Assembly: GCA_944358695.1 (NCBI GenBank) | Contig: CALVRM010000012.1 | Coordinates: 11,471-75,470, forward strand | Reading direction: 5' to 3' | Length of the DNA stretch: 64,000 bases | Source: an uncultured Bacilli bacterium | GTDB taxonomy: Bacteria; Bacillota_I; Bacilli_A; RF39; UBA660 | Shown here: one piece after another, positions 4,627 to 60,523 of the stretch | Numbering within the stretch: position 1 is the stretch's first letter | Layout: the number at the start of each line of letters is the position of its first letter | Made by a program: the position numbers and the translations under genes | The notes under the pieces: model-generated | Seen by the model: the letters and a program-made list of their open reading frames with translations, nothing else | The model's database searches: none | What the model was told of the DNA's origin: nothing

Positions 4627-5307
4627 ATAATAAATTATCGCAAAAATCCATAAAATAAGTAGACAAATAACTAAAGTGAAAGAAAAACCGATTATAAAAA
4701 GGCCAAAATTAGTATTCTTTCTTTTTCTTCTAGAAATTTTCTTTTTCGCTTCAGGACGAATGATAAATTGTTCATAGTTAAAATTACCTACTAGATCACT
4801 CCATACCAAAATTTCAGTTCCCGCTTGACTCTGTTTTATATTATCGGTGATATTTAGATTGTCAAGTGGTTTTATTTCTTTCAAAGTATATTTTTCATAA
4901 TCTTTATCTTCATCATCTTTGCTTTCTAAAACGTTAACTAAATTTACTGCGGCAAATGTTGTTAAGTTATTATAATTTTCGAAAGTATATTGGCCTTGAA
5001 TTTCTTTTAACACAGTTTCATAATAATACCATTTTAATCCACTGTGAAAGGCTAAAAACCAATGAAAATTTTGAATTTCTTTTTTATTTCCTATATTTTT
5101 TTCTTTTTCTATATAAAGGCGGATAACTTCAAATCCCAATGCTTCTAAAAAAGGTGCCATAAATTCCATAGTTTCATTACTGTTATTTAAATTATAGTTT
5201 GTATTATCAAGTATTGCTTCATTATTATTAATTAAAAATTCATATAAACCATTTTGTGAATTAATTCCTATTTCAGCATACTTTTGTAAAACAATTTCCT
5301 TTTCCAT
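4615..5307 (-). CDS. Hypothetical protein with C-terminal transmembrane anchor
   Basis: Start taken at MEKEIV (SD AAAGAGG 7 nt upstream) rather than the ORF-track start at 5355. K/R patch then a hydrophobic C-terminus. No recognised family. Confidence 0.55.
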   Translation of the reverse strand: MEKEIVLQKYAEIGINSQNGLYEFLINNNEAILDNTNYNLNNSNETMEFMAPFLEALGFEVIRLYIEKEKNIGNKKEIQNFHWFLAFHSGLKWYYYETVLKEIQGQYTFENYNNLTTFAAVNLVNVLESKDDEDKDYEKYTLKEIKPLDNLNITDNIKQSQAGTEILVWSDLVGNFNYEQFIIRPEAKKKISRRKRKNTNFGLFIIGFSFTLVICLLILWIFAIIYYGNK

Positions 5308-5424
5308 ACGAAAACCTCTTTTTATTACTTTTTTTAATAATAACATAATCTTCAAAAAAAGGCAAAATATAATAGTATAATTTTACCATTTAATCACACA
5401 ATATTTTTAGAAAGAAGGTAATCT

Positions 5425-5958: not shown

Positions 5959-6197
5959 AAAAAAATATGCTATAATGAACAAAGAAAAGCGACGAAAGAG
6001 AGAAAAATAGGTGACTATATAGAGAGTTTATGGTTGGTGGAAATAGACAAGGTGACTATTGGAAATGGCTCTGGAGCTTTCTAATCGATATTTAGATTAG
6101 AACGATAGCGTGCGTTAAACGTTTGAGGTAAGTGTTTACTTACGAATTAAGGTGGTACCACGTTGAATCACGTCCTTATATTAAGGATGTTTTTTTG
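5948..6197 (+). promoter_or_regulatory. Promoter plus T-box leader (Met specifier) with terminator/antiterminator
   Basis: TTGAAG-17-TGcTATAAT (5948-5976). AGAGAG (6021-6026) and GGUUGGUGGAAA (6032-6043) are stem I elements. GAA-AUG-G specifier context (AUG 6065-6067). T-box AAUUAAGGUGGUACCACG (6145-6162). 9-bp terminator 6170-6190 plus a U-run. Confidence 0.85.
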
Positions 6198-9346: not shown

Positions 9347-11329
9347 ATGAGTATACAAAAAGAAAAAACAGGTTATCCATCAAAGGATAGGAATCATGAA
9401 GATTTCTATGATCCAGAGGTATTATCACGAGAAATACCAGATATGTCATTATATGACTTTCTTCTTTATCAAAATTCAGGACGATTAAATTTACCGGCAA
9501 TAAATTATTTTGATAATAGAATTTCATATCGAAACTTTTTAGACAAAAGTACGCAAGCTGCTTTAGCTTTAGATCATTATGGTGTAAAAGAAGGAGATTA
9601 CGTTACTGTTGTCGCTCCTAGTTTACCAGAAGCATTTTATTTATTGGTAGGAGCAAGTCGAATTGGAGCCGTAGCTAGTTTAGTTGATCCAAGATATGGA
9701 GAAAAAGCCATCGAGCATAAAATCAATAAAGCTGGGTCAGACCTAGTAATTGGTTTTGACGGTGCTGTAAAAACATATAACAGAAGAACAAAAAAATATA
9801 AAAAACAACATGTTTTAGATAAAATAGGAAACATTATTGAAAACACGCCAGCAAAAACCGTTATTGGTTTACCGGCAAGCAACTCAATATCTTTAAATTC
9901 TATTTTAAAAAATGATACGATTAGAGCTGCGATGTTTGACAAACAAAAAAGTGATTTTAAAGATTATTATTCGTGGAAAAAATTTATAAAAGCTGGATCA
10001 CATAGTCGAGGTTTAGTTTTTCCAGATTATACATCTGATATGCCAGTGGCAACTGTATCAACTGGCGGGTCTACAACAGGGTTGCCAAAAAACGTAGTGC
10101 TATCTAGTAAAAATATTATTACGGCTGTAACACAATGTATGTTAACCGGAATTTTTCCAGAAGAAGCACGATGGTATGATATTATGCCAGTTTCAATCGC
10201 TTACGGAATGGCTGACGGTTCTATGTTGCCATTTGCTCTTGGAAACGAAGTTCGATTAAATCCAGATCCAACGGCAATGAGTTTAAAAAATCCTAATCAA
10301 TTACAAATGGTTGAAGACCTTGTAAGATTTGATCCACACACTTTAGCTTGTGCACCAAATCATGTGTTCGCACTTTTAAACAGCCGTGAATGGAAAGAAA
10401 ATCCTCATAGCATGATTAATTTTATTGTTGGTGGAGATTCTTTAAACAAAATGCAATTAGTTCGTGCAAATAAAGAATTGGAAAGCATAAAAAGGCCAAA
10501 AGATTTCGATAAAGAAAGATTTTATGGAGACCAAGAGGATAAACTAGTTATAAATATAGGGTATGGTGAAAGTGAAGGAACCGGTGCCAATAGTGTCGCT
10601 CCCGGAAATCATCGTGTAAAAGTTGGTTCCGTTGGTCAAATTTTACCATTAGAGAATATGGGCGTATTTAAAAAGAACGAAGAAACCGGTGAATATGAAG
10701 AATTAAAATATGTTCCAAACGATCAAGTTGATAATGTAAGTGAAGATCAAATTGGTGAACTATGTGTTCAAGGTGGAAATGTAATGGTTGGTTATCAAAA
10801 CGATGAAGAAGCAACAAACATAGCCAAACAGACACATAGTGATGGTGAAGAATGGCTACATACTGGCGATCTAGGTTATATAGATGAGGACGGTTATGTT
10901 TATTTTGTAGATAGAGAGAAATACGTTAGCGTAGGACATGATGGTTTTAAAATAACCCCACTTGAAATAGAAGATGTTATTTTAAGAGATGGACGTATTG
11001 ATGCTTGTAAGGCTATTGTTTATGATGACCCAGATGAAGATAGGGGTACTGTTATAAAAGTATATTATACTTTATTAAACAAAGATTTGCCTCAAGACAT
11101 TCGTGATATTGAGGAAACTGCCAACTTAATGTGTGAAAGAGAACTTGCTGATTATAAATGCCCACTTGATTATGAATGTTTACCTACTTTACCACTTACT
11201 AACTCTGGAAAGATAGATGTTTTAGCCCTTCGTGAAGATGCCGAAGCTAAGTCAAAAGCCGAAAAAGAAGGCAACCATGTTTATAGTAGGGGGGCTTTAA
11301 TTAGAAATTCTACTACGAAAATGAGTTAA
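9347..11329 (+). CDS. AMP-dependent synthetase/ligase (acyl-CoA synthetase-like, long form)
   Basis: Adenylation motifs STGGSTTGLPKNV, GYGESEGTG, WLHTGDLGYIDEDGYVYFVDREK and C-terminal SGKID. SD GGAGGGGG. Confidence 0.8.
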   Translation: MSIQKEKTGYPSKDRNHEDFYDPEVLSREIPDMSLYDFLLYQNSGRLNLPAINYFDNRISYRNFLDKSTQAALALDHYGVKEGDYVTVVAPSLPEAFYLLVGASRIGAVASLVDPRYGEKAIEHKINKAGSDLVIGFDGAVKTYNRRTKKYKKQHVLDKIGNIIENTPAKTVIGLPASNSISLNSILKNDTIRAAMFDKQKSDFKDYYSWKKFIKAGSHSRGLVFPDYTSDMPVATVSTGGSTTGLPKNVVLSSKNIITAVTQCMLTGIFPEEARWYDIMPVSIAYGMADGSMLPFALGNEVRLNPDPTAMSLKNPNQLQMVEDLVRFDPHTLACAPNHVFALLNSREWKENPHSMINFIVGGDSLNKMQLVRANKELESIKRPKDFDKERFYGDQEDKLVINIGYGESEGTGANSVAPGNHRVKVGSVGQILPLENMGVFKKNEETGEYEELKYVPNDQVDNVSEDQIGELCVQGGNVMVGYQNDEEATNIAKQTHSDGEEWLHTGDLGYIDEDGYVYFVDREKYVSVGHDGFKITPLEIEDVILRDGRIDACKAIVYDDPDEDRGTVIKVYYTLLNKDLPQDIRDIEETANLMCERELADYKCPLDYECLPTLPLTNSGKIDVLALREDAEAKSKAEKEGNHVYSRGALIRNSTTKMS

Positions 11330-11345
11330 AAGCTCATTTTTTTAT
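11319..11345 (+). terminator. Intrinsic terminator overlapping the stop of the AMP-ligase gene
   Basis: AATGAG-ttaaaag-CTCATT followed by a T-run. Confidence 0.7.
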
Positions 11346-11426
11346 TATAATTGTTGTAAAATCTAGTTAATAAATTTACTTATGAAAGTAAGAGTGTTAT
11401 AATGTAAATAATTGGGGAGGTAAAAA

Positions 11427-23498: not shown

Positions 23499-23661
23499 TT
23501 GATTTTCATAGAATAATCATGTATACTTTTGAATGTGTGGCGTGCGATGATGTGTGAGGTTGCCGAGACGCTAGGTTAAGTTGCAAACGTTTGCAATGGC
23601 ATACTCGGGTTTTTACACGGAGCAGTCTATACTAAAGATATAGGCGAAAGGAGGATACAAT
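23499..23661 (+). promoter_or_regulatory. S10-operon promoter and structured, locally GC-rich 5' leader
   Basis: TTGATT-17-TATACT (23499-23527). The leader contains the palindromic hairpin UUGCAAACGUUUGCAA nested in CCGAG...CUCGG followed by GUUUUU. Confidence 0.5.
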
Positions 23662-58107: not shown

Positions 58108-58289
58108 ATCATCACCTAATATAATATATGAAAAAAAATAAAGTTATTGAATAAAATATCAGTATATGGTATAATTAACATGCTTGAACGTTTACAGTAA
58201 ACTGTCAAGTCGATTAAGCCAATTTTGATATAATTTAATTTTTGTTAATAAATTTTAATTGATTTTGATCGATTTTGTCTTTGGACATA

Positions 58290-58319
58290 TTGATTAAGAT
58301 TAGTAAAATTTGTTATAAT
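58290..58319 (+). promoter_or_regulatory. Putative promoter of the tRNA gene
   Basis: TTGATT, 18 nt, TGtTATAAT, about 25 nt upstream of tRNA position 1. A second TTGAAT-17-TATAAT lies at 58148-58176. Confidence 0.45.
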
Positions 58320-58343
58320 AGATTTGCTTGAAAAAGCAATTAT

Positions 58344-58678
58344 AGGGAAATAGTTCAGTTGGTAGAACGTCGGTGGATAAACGGCCGACCTAACAAAATT
58401 GTTAGTAAAAAATCGAGGAAGAAATCTGGAAAGCTAAACCTTTGTGGCAAGCCAATCAGAGTGGAAGTTAATATTTAAAAGTATTAACACACGCAACGCA
58501 TAGATAGTGAACCTATTAATTTAGAATATAATCTATCCACGAGGCCTCGACATCTATATAAGATGAAAAGATATGCTGAACTTATACGAAAGTATAAGAA
58601 GTAGAAGATAAAAAGCTTTTACGATAACAATTGCTCCAAAACCGAATGTCGTGGGTTCAAATCCTGCTTTCCCTGCCA
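58344..58678 (+). tRNA. trnW: tRNA-Trp(CCA) gene split by a 259-nt intervening sequence (exons 58344-58374 and 58634-58678)
   Basis: The joined exons give a 76-nt cloverleaf: AGGGAAA/UUUCCCU acceptor, GUUC/GAAC D stem, UCGGU/ACCGA anticodon stem, loop CUCCAAA, GUGGG-UUCAAAU-CCUGC T arm, G73 and encoded CCA. Confidence 0.85.
58375..58633 (+). ncRNA. Group I-like intron inside tRNA-Trp
   Basis: Exon ends in U, intron ends in G. P1 pairs GUCGGU (58369-74) with GCCGAC (58384-89), closed by a U.G wobble. P2 hairpin 58390-58405. P3 candidate 58413-18 with 58545-50. GAAA-capped hairpin 58581-98. No ORF, TIR or TSD. Confidence 0.6.
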
Positions 58679-58717
58679 GATGTGAATACACTCCAACTTT
58701 TGGAGTTCAAACATAGA

Positions 58718-58756
58718 GAAAACCGTGATTTTATAAGGGATTTCACGGTTTTTTGT
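58718..58756 (+). terminator. Intrinsic terminator downstream of the tRNA
   Basis: AAAACCGTGA-loop-TCACGGTTTT followed by a T-run. Confidence 0.75.
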
Positions 58757-59245
58757 TTGAATAAAAAAAGGAGTGAAAAAATATGGATTTTATGATAAAA
58801 TATTATGTAGATAAAACAGTTTAACTATTTGTGAAATGGGTGAGTAAAAATTACAAAATAAATAGTTTGTAATCTTTTGAATCACGAGATCATATGTGAT
58901 GTCAGTAGTGCTTAAAAAATTTACTAGAAAACTTGAAATATTGTAGACACAAATAAAAAAGCCGTTCGAATAAAAAGGTGATAAAATACGCTTTCGAAAA
59001 GAGGCGCTTTCTTATGATTTCTATATTTTGATTAACTATATTTAATTTTGTAAAAATCACATTTTGAGAAATTTTTAAATCATTACTAATATTGTATATA
59101 AAATAACATACTTCTATCATTTGATAAGAGTAACTACTATAAATAGTATATGTTTAATACCAAACAAAAGCTGTAACATTTAATCGACTTATAACGTATT
59201 TTTCAATCACTTATGTTAATTTTAGATTTAGAAGAGGGTGACTAT

Positions 59246-59695
59246 ATGTTTGGAAGTAGACTAAAGTCGCTAAGAGAAAACGCGGGAAAAGAACAATATT
59301 TTATAGCTAATAAATTAAATATTGCTAGAAACACATATACTGAATATGAAACCAGCAAAATTACTCCGCCAATTAAAGCATTATGTACTTTAGCACTATT
59401 CTATAACGTTAGTCTTGATTACATTCTTGGCATAAGTAATTCAAGGACACCATATGGGAAAATGAAAGATTATGATGAACAAATATTTATAAGAAACACC
59501 AAATTGATTCGCCAAAAACTAAAATATAACCAAAGTTTTTTTGCAAAACTTGTTAACTGTCACAGAGTTACACTTGCAAGATATGAAATTGGTAAAACCA
59601 GTATTCCCGTAGACTACTTAATCAAACTTTCGAGCCTTTCTAAAATTCCAAGTGATTATATCGTAGGAATAATTGCCCAAAAATGGGAAGACTAA
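59246..59695 (+). CDS. XRE-family regulator with two tandem HTH domains
   Basis: Start MFGSRLKSLRE after SD GAGGGTG. Two Cro/C1-type HTH units (..LRENAGKEQ...SLDYILG and ..IRQKLKYNQ...PSDYIVG). Confidence 0.8.
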   Translation: MFGSRLKSLRENAGKEQYFIANKLNIARNTYTEYETSKITPPIKALCTLALFYNVSLDYILGISNSRTPYGKMKDYDEQIFIRNTKLIRQKLKYNQSFFAKLVNCHRVTLARYEIGKTSIPVDYLIKLSSLSKIPSDYIVGIIAQKWED

Positions 59696-59835: not shown

Positions 59836-60288
59836 TTACTTATAGTTTTTGATTTTGCTTTTACCCAATAACCAATCTAAAGAAACATTATAATTTTGTG
59901 CAAATGTCTTGAGTATTAATGTTTGTGGGAAATATTTACCGTTTTTATAATTTCTATAAGAAGACGGTGAGATATCTAATAGTTTAGCAAACTGTTTTTG
60001 GTTTAAATTCATATTTTTTCTTATGATTTCCAAATTTTGACCAACTATCTTAGGAGAAATATCTATCAAATCTATTTTAATATTTCTGTTCTCCCTAACA
60101 ATTAACTTAGTGGCATAATTTAAACTTACTTTAAAAAGGTTACAAAATAGATTAAGTTTTTTTAAAGGAATGTTGTCATTTTCATTTTCCCAGCCTTTAT
60201 AAGTGTTTACGTTTACATTTATTTTATGTGCCACATCAACTTGTAATAAGTCATAATCATTGCGTATTTTTTTTAGTCTGTAATTCAT
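59836..60288 (-). CDS. XRE-family regulator with two tandem HTH domains (convergent paralog-like)
   Basis: Start MNYRLKKIRND. Two HTH units (...SLNYATK and ..IIRKNMNLNQKQFAKLLDIS...SLDWLLG). Confidence 0.75.
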   Translation of the reverse strand: MNYRLKKIRNDYDLLQVDVAHKINVNVNTYKGWENENDNIPLKKLNLFCNLFKVSLNYATKLIVRENRNIKIDLIDISPKIVGQNLEIIRKNMNLNQKQFAKLLDISPSSYRNYKNGKYFPQTLILKTFAQNYNVSLDWLLGKSKIKNYK

Positions 60289-60523
60289 AGTTATCACCAA
60301 ATAAATCATTTTATTCATTTTTTTAACCTGCCGTGTGGTATCCCATCATATGGTTATTTCGGCTTTCTTATTAACAATTGTCAACAATCTAAAAACAGCT
60401 CATATTGAGCTGTTTTCCAAAGACTCATAAAGAGTCAATTTTACAACTTACAACATAAAGCTAATTACTTAAAACTAACTACAACTTTATTATAGCAAAA
60501 TTTGTCGAAAAATGCAATAAAAT

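Follow-up and report, generated by a model that had tools for sequence, protein, structure and literature searches.

What interrupts the tRNA-Trp gene of an uncultured Bacilli bacterium, and is the interrupted gene still a working one? The gene lies on contig CALVRM010000012.1 of assembly GCA_944358695.1, in a stretch of 64,000 nucleotides (nt) that we call the window; all coordinates are positions in this 64-kb window. A first-pass annotation, made from the sequence alone, had proposed that a group I-like intron splits the gene between tRNA nucleotides 31 and 32. The group I reading is supported because the core covaries in a family of homologs, its 3′ domain resembles the introns of phage Twort, the phage members interrupt their genes precisely, five further species carry the same insertion, and a relative has a syntenic empty site. 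As judged from these comparisons, the insert is probably (at about 0.85) a functional phage IA2-like group I intron without an open reading frame (ORF), residing in an uncultured low-GC lineage of Bacilli, in what looks like its housekeeping tRNA-Trp(CCA) gene.

A tRNA-Trp gene split between nucleotides 31 and 32

When joined, positions 58344-58374 and 58634-58678 form a 76-nt tRNA-Trp(cca) that is recognized by ARAGORN, as had been claimed. The cloverleaf is canonical, with A1-U72, G73, an encoded CCA, anticodon loop CUCCAAA, and acceptor stem AGGGAAA/UUUCCCU. The identity features named by the first-pass annotation are thus all present, but its description of the fold as flawless is too strong, as the T stem has two G.U pairs. 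The intron-allowing search that it had suggested returned tRNA-Trp i(32,259) from the unspliced region; in default mode, ARAGORN found zero tRNA genes in the 64-kb window. The splice boundaries cannot slide: a shift in one direction would need the last base of exon 1 (T) to equal that of the insert (G), and a shift in the other would need the first base of the insert (G) to equal that of exon 2 (C). The predicted spliced junction reads ...GGUAGAACGUCGGU/CUCCAAAACCGA.... The 259-nt insert has a G+C content of 33% and no ORF of at least 50 amino acids (aa), and neither terminal inverted repeats nor a target duplication or transposase was seen in its sequence, in agreement with what had been reported.

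The gene is apparently needed. Five long ORFs of the window that end in TGA meet a TAA or TAG within the next 0-21 codons, and for this reason we assign the standard genetic code to the window, under which UGG needs a tRNA-Trp(CCA). UGG occurs 125 times in the long reading frames of the window. A code in which UGA is read as Trp, making this tRNA dispensable, was considered and is ruled out by the stop-codon pattern.

A phage intron family with a covarying group I core

In the following, P denotes paired and J joining segments. A 17-mer from the presumed J8/7-P7′ segment (GAAAAGATATGCTGAAC) matched at least 120 viral contigs in IMG/VR, and about 100 of these proved homologous over almost the entire insert, with E-values down to 5e-32 (nhmmer, exon plus insert as query). 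As the set was gathered by one exact 17-mer, it under-samples the diversity of P7 and J8/7. In BLAST searches against GenBank, phages of Staphylococcus, Bacillus, Clostridium, Clostridioides, Listeria, and Yersinia were partially matched; in none of the 40 best phage matches listed is the matched stretch annotated as an intron. Two other routes to homologs were of little use: a P4-P5 pattern scan of viral contigs gave 55 loci, about the number expected by chance and with few genuine ones, and metagenome contigs found through neighboring proteins were 100% identical across the tRNA locus and offered no variation. A family hidden Markov model (HMM) detected no further copy of the intron in the window.

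An alignment of 54 non-redundant cores, namely the window and 53 phage-contig copies, with P1 and P2 left outside, was used to test a structure of 56 pairs in 11 helices written for the window sequence. Standard pairs were formed in 91.4% of the alignment cells, compared with 66.4% after shuffling of the 3′ letters (0 of 500 shuffles reached the observed value) and 33-44% when the partners were slid by 1-3 columns. The sequences are related, and the shuffle statistics treat them as more independent than they are; nevertheless, the control with slid partners and the variety of distinct pair types argue for a real covariation signal. Compensatory double changes were found in 49 of the 56 pairs, which answers the check for P3-P9 covariation that the first-pass annotation had suggested. 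P3 is 94.7% paired with compensatory changes in five of its six pairs, P7.1 is 99.3% paired (5/5 pairs covary), P7.2 is 92% paired (all pairs covary), and P9.1 is 95.4% paired (7/7 pairs covary). P7 is paired in 100% of cells, and its G58498-C58576 pair is G-C in all 54 sequences; in two members, two P7 pairs switch together, changing GCAUA/UAUGC into GACUA/UAGUC or GAGUA/UACUC. Early P7 candidates beside P3′ (GAGG or GGC) had been dropped in favor of this helix. J6/7 (GCAAC) and J8/7 (AAAAGA(U)) are near-invariant, and the window intron keeps nearly all positions that are invariant across the phage family. P7 forms a pseudoknot with P3, and the P4-P6 and P3-P8 domains have the topology of a group I core. 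In P5, some family members carry a canonical CCUAAG...UAUGG receptor, and with P9 closed by a GAAA loop this suggests that L9 and P5 make their usual contact.

Phage members interrupt protein genes precisely

For phage members, excision was placed after the U that pairs with the guide G and after the G that follows UAACA.... ORF continuity alone gave ambiguous splice sites, and copies were retained only if the guide matched clearly, at 5-6 of 6 positions. Excision from locus L178 yields an 868-aa ribonucleotide reductase in which the Pfam domain Ribonuc_red_lgC is matched from position 3 to 523 of 523 in one stretch, across NPCG/E. In L129, excision restores a DnaB-like helicase with the junction within the Walker A motif (GVG/KS), and in L053 a P22-like portal protein. 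In L176, L101, and L151, excision likewise joins long ORFs (378-564 aa); Pfam had no family for the joined ORFs of L176 or L151, the two that were scanned. L163 was set aside, its joined ORF being unconvincing. A G stands at the ORF-restoring junction in the phage members. Their exon ends and guides covary, with the U.G wobble retained: UUCGGU/GCCGAA in L179, CUCGGU/GCCGAG in L176, UGCGGU/GCCGCA in L178, GGCGGU/GCCGCC in L163, and GUCGGU/GCCGAC in L129, L053, L101, and the window. As judged from the restored reading frames, the phage members behave as precise introns.

The family shows further features in its phage hosts. At least 100 phage-contig introns (IMG/VR loci L060-L179) share the block GAAAAGAUAUGCUGAAC and the P7 GCAUA/UAUGC, for example at L082:748-980, L110:5075-5323, and L178:3358-3707. 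Two family introns can sit in one phage gene, about 380-430 nt apart, as in L060 (3776-4161 and 4154-4539) and L165 (6764-7113 and 7191-7548). Within each such pair, one member has the P7 GAGUA/UACUC or GACUA/UAGUC and the other GCAUA/UAUGC, and it is possible that differing P7 helices prevent neighboring ribozymes from cross-pairing or from skipping the short middle exon. L179, a 16.7-kb phage contig, carries three group I introns (1452-1711, 5153-5386, and 11248-11408): a classical one (Rfam, 80 bits), a family member, and a third that combines the family 3′ domain with the classical GAUAUAGUCC.

An IA2-like ribozyme core

The first-pass annotation had identified several elements of the ribozyme correctly. 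P1 pairs GUCGGU with the internal guide GCCGAC and ends in the wobble U58374.G58384 at the 5′ splice site, and the omegaG, G58633, directly precedes the 3′ splice site set by the tRNA boundary; P1 covaries among the phage copies. P1 takes up the whole anticodon-stem 5′ strand (G26-U31), so that only one of P1 and the anticodon stem can exist at a time; the guide sequence (G-CCGA-C) is a mimic of the anticodon-stem 3′ strand (A-CCGA-A). The minimum free energy (MFE) fold of the pre-tRNA recovers the acceptor, D, and T arms together with P1, P2, P3, P4, P5, P6, P6a, P8, P9, and P9.1 (z = -4.28; none of 100 shuffles was as stable). Included are the four hairpins that had been noticed at 58390-58405, 58467-58488, 58551-58565, and 58581-58598, as well as the proposed P3 (58413-18 with 58545-50); of these elements, all but P1 and P2 are also supported by covariation in the homolog alignment. 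Missed at that stage was P7, formed by 58498-58502 with 58572-58576. The core had also been likened to IC3 introns, a resemblance that suits the P4-P5 segment but not the architecture. We rejected an IC3 assignment in view of P7.1/P7.2, and the insertion lies at 31/32, not inside the anticodon loop.

The relationship to phage introns was followed through the Twort ribozyme, whose sequence matched GenBank entry AF132670.1 at 99%. This entry annotates orf142 as joined from four pieces and as one that "contains group 1 introns", and Rfam scores three Twort orf142 introns at 64-101 bits. In the Rfam alignments, the Twort core reads ...GUGCAAC-GACUA-[P7.1/P7.2]-AAU-P3′-P8-..GAUA-UAGUC-UGAAC-P9(GAAA)..., and the window core reads ...CACGCAAC-GCAUA-[P7.1/P7.2]-CACGAG-P3′-P8-AAAAGA-UAUGC-UGAAC-P9(GAAA).... 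Both end in UAACA(U)AAUUG (Twort, ...GUAACAUAAUUG). A structure-aware covariance model of the family 3′ domain, from P3′ to omegaG, matched two Twort introns end to end, at 35.9 bits (E 7e-6) and 31.4 bits (E 7e-5), these E-values being rough. The same model matched the 3′ domain of an Rfam-called intron in L179 at 44.9 bits. By the P7.1/P7.2 insertion between P7 and P3′, placed as in the Twort alignment, the intron would be assigned to a phage IA2-like subgroup.

Related genomes and an empty site

A scan of one genome per GTDB species for the intron 3′ end followed by CTCCAAAAC gave nine loci. Five belong to metagenome-assembled genomes (MAGs) named "uncultured Bacilli" or "Bacillales", and the remaining four are chance matches. 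In four of the five MAGs the split tRNA-Trp is complete (ARAGORN i(32,259-263)); of the fifth copy, the 3′ part is present as far as the contig end. The window and the four complete copies are about 95% identical, and their differences are mostly in loops or compensated, the compensated ones being an acceptor-stem change of A5-U68 to G-C and one P9.1 pair in one MAG (L182) and a change in P6a in another (L186). Except for the one compensated acceptor-stem change, exon 1 is invariant in the five aligned copies. The P2 stem is likewise invariant, and its loop is variable.

Uninterrupted tRNA-Trp genes with the exact target are common, the spliced junction GGTAGAACGTCGGTCTCCAAAACCGA being present at at least 120 metagenome loci. 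One of these, human-gut contig OPVV01000172.1 (L302), carries an intronless tRNA-Trp with 3 differences from that of the window in 76 positions and none from the spliced tRNA of L182. Its neighbors are those of the window, namely a Hydrolase_2 protein (75% amino-acid identity), an HtrA-like protease, and an Abi-like ORF; the shared neighbors mark it as the orthologous tRNA-Trp locus. Compared with this empty site, the window has a clean insertion of exactly the intron. A second syntenic intronless case was found (L252). Judged by gene order, the orthologous tRNA-Trp locus is thus occupied in one sub-lineage and empty in a relative.

Is the intron functional?

Several observations count against a working group I intron. 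The Rfam model RF00028 (Intron_gpI) matched nothing in the whole window at its gathering threshold, nor in 58250-58780 at E<=10, where the scan gave only chance matches, downstream; across 23 homologous loci, about 20 of them of the family, the family likewise went unmatched (seven homologous loci at E<=1). The first-pass annotation had counted the lack of such a hit against its own proposal. As the model misses the entire family, however, the result is a false negative that reveals a blind spot of RF00028. The full-length family HMM, which uses sequence only, did not reach the Twort introns either. P10, counted as contiguous pairs between the 3′ exon and the bases that directly precede the guide, is reduced to 1 bp in all tRNA-Trp copies (C58634, which is C32, with G58383), compared with 5-8 bp in six phage members; it is a helix that several natural group I introns can do without. 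In P7, the pair adjoining the guanosine-binding G-C is C-G, not the usual A-U, a departure in sequence and not in architecture. Finally, the genome was covered over 64 kb, which limits the census of tRNA-Trp genes to the window.

On the strength of the missing P10, the failed Rfam match, and 64 kb of sequence that holds no other tRNA, the split gene could be regarded as a decaying relic, a pseudogene whose function is covered by an intact tRNA-Trp elsewhere that reads UGG. We consider this improbable. Both exons and every core helix are intact, nearly all positions invariant in the phage family are retained, and about 95% identity is kept in five other species-level genomes, where changes are compensatory and not random, even in the acceptor stem of the tRNA. 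Synteny with the intronless tRNA-Trp locus of a relative argues that the split gene is the ancestral, working copy, and promoter-like and terminator-like signals are in place. It is scarcely credible that the insert is an unrelated mobile element, such as a miniature inverted-repeat transposable element (MITE) or an insertion sequence (IS) fragment, or else an archaeal-type tRNA intron spliced by proteins. Small size, lack of coding capacity, and AT-richness would suit a mobile element, but the insert has no terminal inverted repeats or target duplication, its group I core is supported by covariation, and it is homologous over its full length to introns that interrupt phage ORFs precisely. Archaeal-type introns have a bulge-helix-bulge at their two splice sites, usually at 37/38; here the position is 31/32, and the MFE fold puts one splice site where P1 ends and the other in a single-stranded tail.

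A less distant possibility, although still an unlikely one, is a genuine group I intron that is inefficient alone. It might need a host protein as chaperone or cofactor, or it might have been co-opted so that the supply of tRNA-Trp follows the level of Mg2+ or of guanosine nucleotides. In vivo, many group I introns rich in AU depend on proteins, and this RNA is AU-rich (33% GC), with a short P4 (4-5 bp) and no P10. However, neither the intron nor its immediate surroundings contain a candidate gene for a maturase or cofactor, and the related Twort introns are said to self-splice in vitro, as Landthaler and Shub reportedly found in 1999. On balance, we favor a functional intron of the phage IA2-like type.

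Proposed splicing and origin of the intron

The steps proposed here are taken from established group I chemistry, whereas the architecture, the U-1.G wobble, omegaG, the P7 G-C pair, and their conservation are observed. The gene would be transcribed from its own promoter into a precursor of about 335 nt, in which G26-U31 would pair with the guide GCCGAC as P1, instead of with A39-A43. The P3-P8 and P4-P6 domains would then fold around the P7 pseudoknot with its invariant, guanosine-binding G-C pair, and an external guanosine would attack after U31 at the U.G wobble. G58633 would take the same site, the freed 3′-OH of U31 would attack before C32, and the exons would be ligated, after which the anticodon stem could close. 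In place of P10, the body of the tRNA, with its 7-bp acceptor stem joining the exons, its D and T arms, and its tertiary fold, may hold the 3′ exon.

The intron most probably originated by ectopic insertion from a phage gene, with the 6-nt P1 sequence GUCGGU as the only target match, and would have been inherited vertically thereafter. The P1 target is identical to that of several phage copies and P10 is unmatched, which fits an insertion guided by P1 only. The GUCGGU target is common to a phage DnaB-like helicase (L129), a portal protein (L053), and a third ORF (L101); these copies sit in different genes, each with a well-matched P10. The nearest phage copies are 75-79% identical to the window intron, and the transfer is therefore not recent. 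Two patterns searched in IMG/VR found no phage tRNA gene with this intron. On one phage contig, a family intron is preceded, at a distance of about 400 nt, by an uninterrupted tRNA gene (L072:8579-8649; 39 bits with the Rfam tRNA model), so phage tRNAs and family introns can adjoin.

For such moves, reverse splicing followed by reverse transcription and recombination has been proposed, with a requirement for 4-6 nt of complementarity; a 2014 review notes no direct experimental evidence for the reverse-splicing route (PMC3984707). We tentatively suggest that a phage IA2-like intron reached the host tRNA in this way, with P1 matched perfectly and P10 not, and was then fixed in what is possibly the sole tRNA-Trp of a gut Bacilli clade. 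Alternatively, the insertion could be due to an endonuclease, encoded in a relative, that acted by illegitimate homing. If reverse splicing was indeed the route, the locus would be a natural, datable case in which a group I intron crossed the phage-host boundary by RNA-guided ectopic transposition, with donor-type and empty-site sequences both in hand and a host that depends on a ribozyme to read UGG.

Features of the locus

Coordinates of the gene, the intron, and its helices are collected in Table 1.

Table 1 Features of the split tRNA-Trp locus, in order of position
Feature	Position in window	Strand	Basis or remark
Promoter-like site TTGATT-18-TATAAT with TG extension, 25 nt 5′ of the tRNA	58290..58319	+	consensus only, 10/12 matches; function presumed
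tRNA-Trp exon 1 (acceptor 5′ strand, D arm, anticodon-stem 5′ strand, ends U31)	58344..58374, 31 nt	+	sequence AGGGAAAUAGUUCAGUUGGUAGAACGUCGGU, ARAGORN
P1 5′ strand GUCGGU (tRNA G26-U31); U58374 is U-1 of the 5′ splice site	58369..58374	+	sequence, MFE fold, phage covariation
Group I intron, IA2-like, no ORF	58375..58633, 259 nt	+	ARAGORN boundaries, homology, covariation, 3′-domain covariance model
Internal guide GCCGAC (P1 3′ strand); G58384 pairs with U-1	58384..58389	+	sequence, MFE fold, phage covariation
P2 hairpin CUAACA-AAAU-UGUUAG	58390..58405	+	MFE fold
P3 5′ strand UCGAGG	58413..58418	+	covariation
P4-P5 domain	58425..58460	+	covariation, helix 2
P4 UCUGG/UCAGA	58425-29 with 58456-60	+	J4/5 is AAA, J5/4 is CAA
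P5 GCU/AGC	58433-35 with 58450-52	+	internal loop resembles tetraloop receptor
P6 GUG/CAC	58461-63 with 58490-92	+	covariation, all pairs
P6a hairpin	58467-73 with 58482-88	+	covariation, all pairs
J6/7 GCAAC, then P7 5′ strand GCAUA (58498-58502)	58493..58502	+	covariation; G58498 in the invariant G-C pair
P7.1 (58503-07 with 58533-37) enclosing P7.2 (58513-15 with 58522-24)	58503..58537	+	IA-type insertion between P7 and P3′
P3 3′ strand CCUCGA	58545..58550	+	covariation; conserved joining segment CACGAGG just 5′ (58538-44)
P8 hairpin CAUCU-AUAUA-AGAUG	58551..58565 (58551-55 with 58561-65)	+	covariation, helix 8
J8/7 AAAAGA, P7 3′ strand UAUGC (58572-76), J7/9 UGAAC	58566..58581	+	most conserved block in family
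P9 hairpin, GAAA tetraloop 58588-91	58582..58597 (58582-87 with 58592-97)	+	covariation, helices 9 and 10
P9.1 hairpin GUAGAAG/CUUUUAC, conserved loop AUAAAAAG	58601..58622 (58601-07 with 58616-22)	+	covariation
Conserved 3′ tail GAUAACAAUUG; G58633 is omegaG	58623..58633	+	family alignment, 3′-domain covariance model
tRNA-Trp exon 2 (loop CUCCAAA, anticodon-stem 3′ strand, variable loop, T arm, acceptor 3′ strand, G73, CCA)	58634..58678, 45 nt	+	sequence CUCCAAAACCGAAUGUCGUGGGUUCAAAUCCUGCUUUCCCUGCCA, ARAGORN
Terminator-like 9-bp hairpin AAACCGUGA...UCACGGUUU, then U run	58720..58757	+	read by eye from sequence; function presumed

The terminator-like hairpin was missed by the scanner, as its 14-nt loop exceeds the 3-8 nt allowed. 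Between it and the tRNA, 12 nt past the tRNA 3′ end, lies a 7-bp hairpin, ACUCCAA-CUU-UUGGAGU (58690-58706). Just downstream are two convergent ORFs of 160 aa, at 59213-59695 (+) and 59836-60318 (-), each with two XRE-type helix-turn-helix domains (HTH_19/HTH_3); the pair is also present on the metagenome contig copies of the window. Elsewhere, the window has a T-box leader at 5983-6180 (+; 118 bits) and an S10-Clostridia ribosomal-protein leader at 23539-23647 (+; 35.9 bits, barely over threshold), both of which fit a Firmicute chromosome.

Comparison with known introns

The background on bacterial tRNA introns given in the first-pass annotation, which named few tRNAs and host groups, is out of date. 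The 2014 review (PMC3984707), which includes a list of bacterial tRNA introns, places all phage introns then known in protein genes. The 2020 preprint of Williams (bioRxiv 10.1101/2020.01.27.920355) raised the tRNA/position classes from 4, all IC3, to 21, using Rfam Intron_gpI at >=18 bits and then a derived model. Its seeds are Leu.1/2/3, Arg.3/5, fMet.2/5, Met.2, Ile2.2/5, Thr.2/3/5, Lys.2/3/4, Ser.3, Tyr.4, Asp.4, Asn.4, Phe.2, and tmRNA (transfer-messenger RNA). Neither "Trp" nor position "0" ("0Ug") occurs in its supplementary files, to which this check was confined, Table 1 of the preprint being an image. A full-text literature search for group I intron with tRNA-Trp or tRNATrp gave nothing relevant.

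Set against these sources, the tRNA (Trp), the insertion point (the stem-loop junction 31/32), and the host group (uncultured gut Bacilli) are new for bacterial tRNA introns. Unusual traits of the intron are the position at 31/32, the lack of P10, and a P7 variant that hides the whole family from RF00028. Should these organisms have a single tRNA-Trp gene, the reading of all their UGG codons would rest on a ribozyme. With default settings, tRNA finders overlook the tRNA-Trp here, and RF00028 overlooks the intron along with a family of at least 100 phage introns whose P7 sequence is changed; such genomes would be scored as having no tRNA-Trp, and phage genes with family introns will be annotated as fragments. 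A P1 identical to that of phage copies, the lack of P10, and an empty site together offer a test system for intron spread by reverse splicing.

Similar to the classical IC3 introns of cyanobacterial tRNA-Leu(UAA) and tRNA-fMet, Azoarcus tRNA-Ile(CAU), and Agrobacterium tRNA-Arg(CCU), the window intron draws P1 from the anticodon-arm 5′ strand with a U-1.G wobble, has no ORF, and appears to be inherited vertically within a clade. The classical introns, however, have no P7.1/P7.2 and interrupt the anticodon loop itself (positions 2, 3, or 5 in the numbering of Williams), whereas the window intron is IA2-like and lies before loop nucleotide 32 (position 0), in a tRNA-Trp of Bacilli. Four of the seeds in the Williams files (Lys.2Ug, Asn.4Ug, Phe.2Ug, and Leu.1Ug) share the P7.1/P7.2-type insertion after P7; IA-like tRNA introns thus already exist, and a non-IC3 intron in a tRNA is not unprecedented. 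These seeds differ from the window intron in their P7 and J8/7, which are the classical AGAGACUA / GAUAUAGUCC, and in having been found with Rfam-derived models; as listed in those files, none is in tRNA-Trp or at position 0. The T-loop group I intron in the tmRNA of Clostridium botulinum and others is likewise found in a Firmicute tRNA-like gene and has, in the seeds Cbo40.tmRNA and Tsu4.tmRNA of the same files, a P7.1-type insertion, but the gene, the site (the T loop), and the P7 sequence, which is classical, are different.

The Twort orf142 introns (IA2, AF132670.1) have the same order throughout, P3-P4-P5-P6-J6/7(GCAAC)-P7-P7.1/P7.2-P3′-P8-J8/7-P7′-UGAAC-P9(GAAA)-P9.1-UAACA..AAUUG-omegaG, and both they and the family described here are phage-borne and have no ORF. 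The differences are a P7 of GCAUA/UAUGC here versus GACUA/UAGUC in Twort, a J8/7 that is shorter here, and the response of RF00028, which scores the Twort introns at 64-101 bits and leaves the window intron unscored. Above all, the host gene is a bacterial tRNA here and a phage protein gene in Twort.

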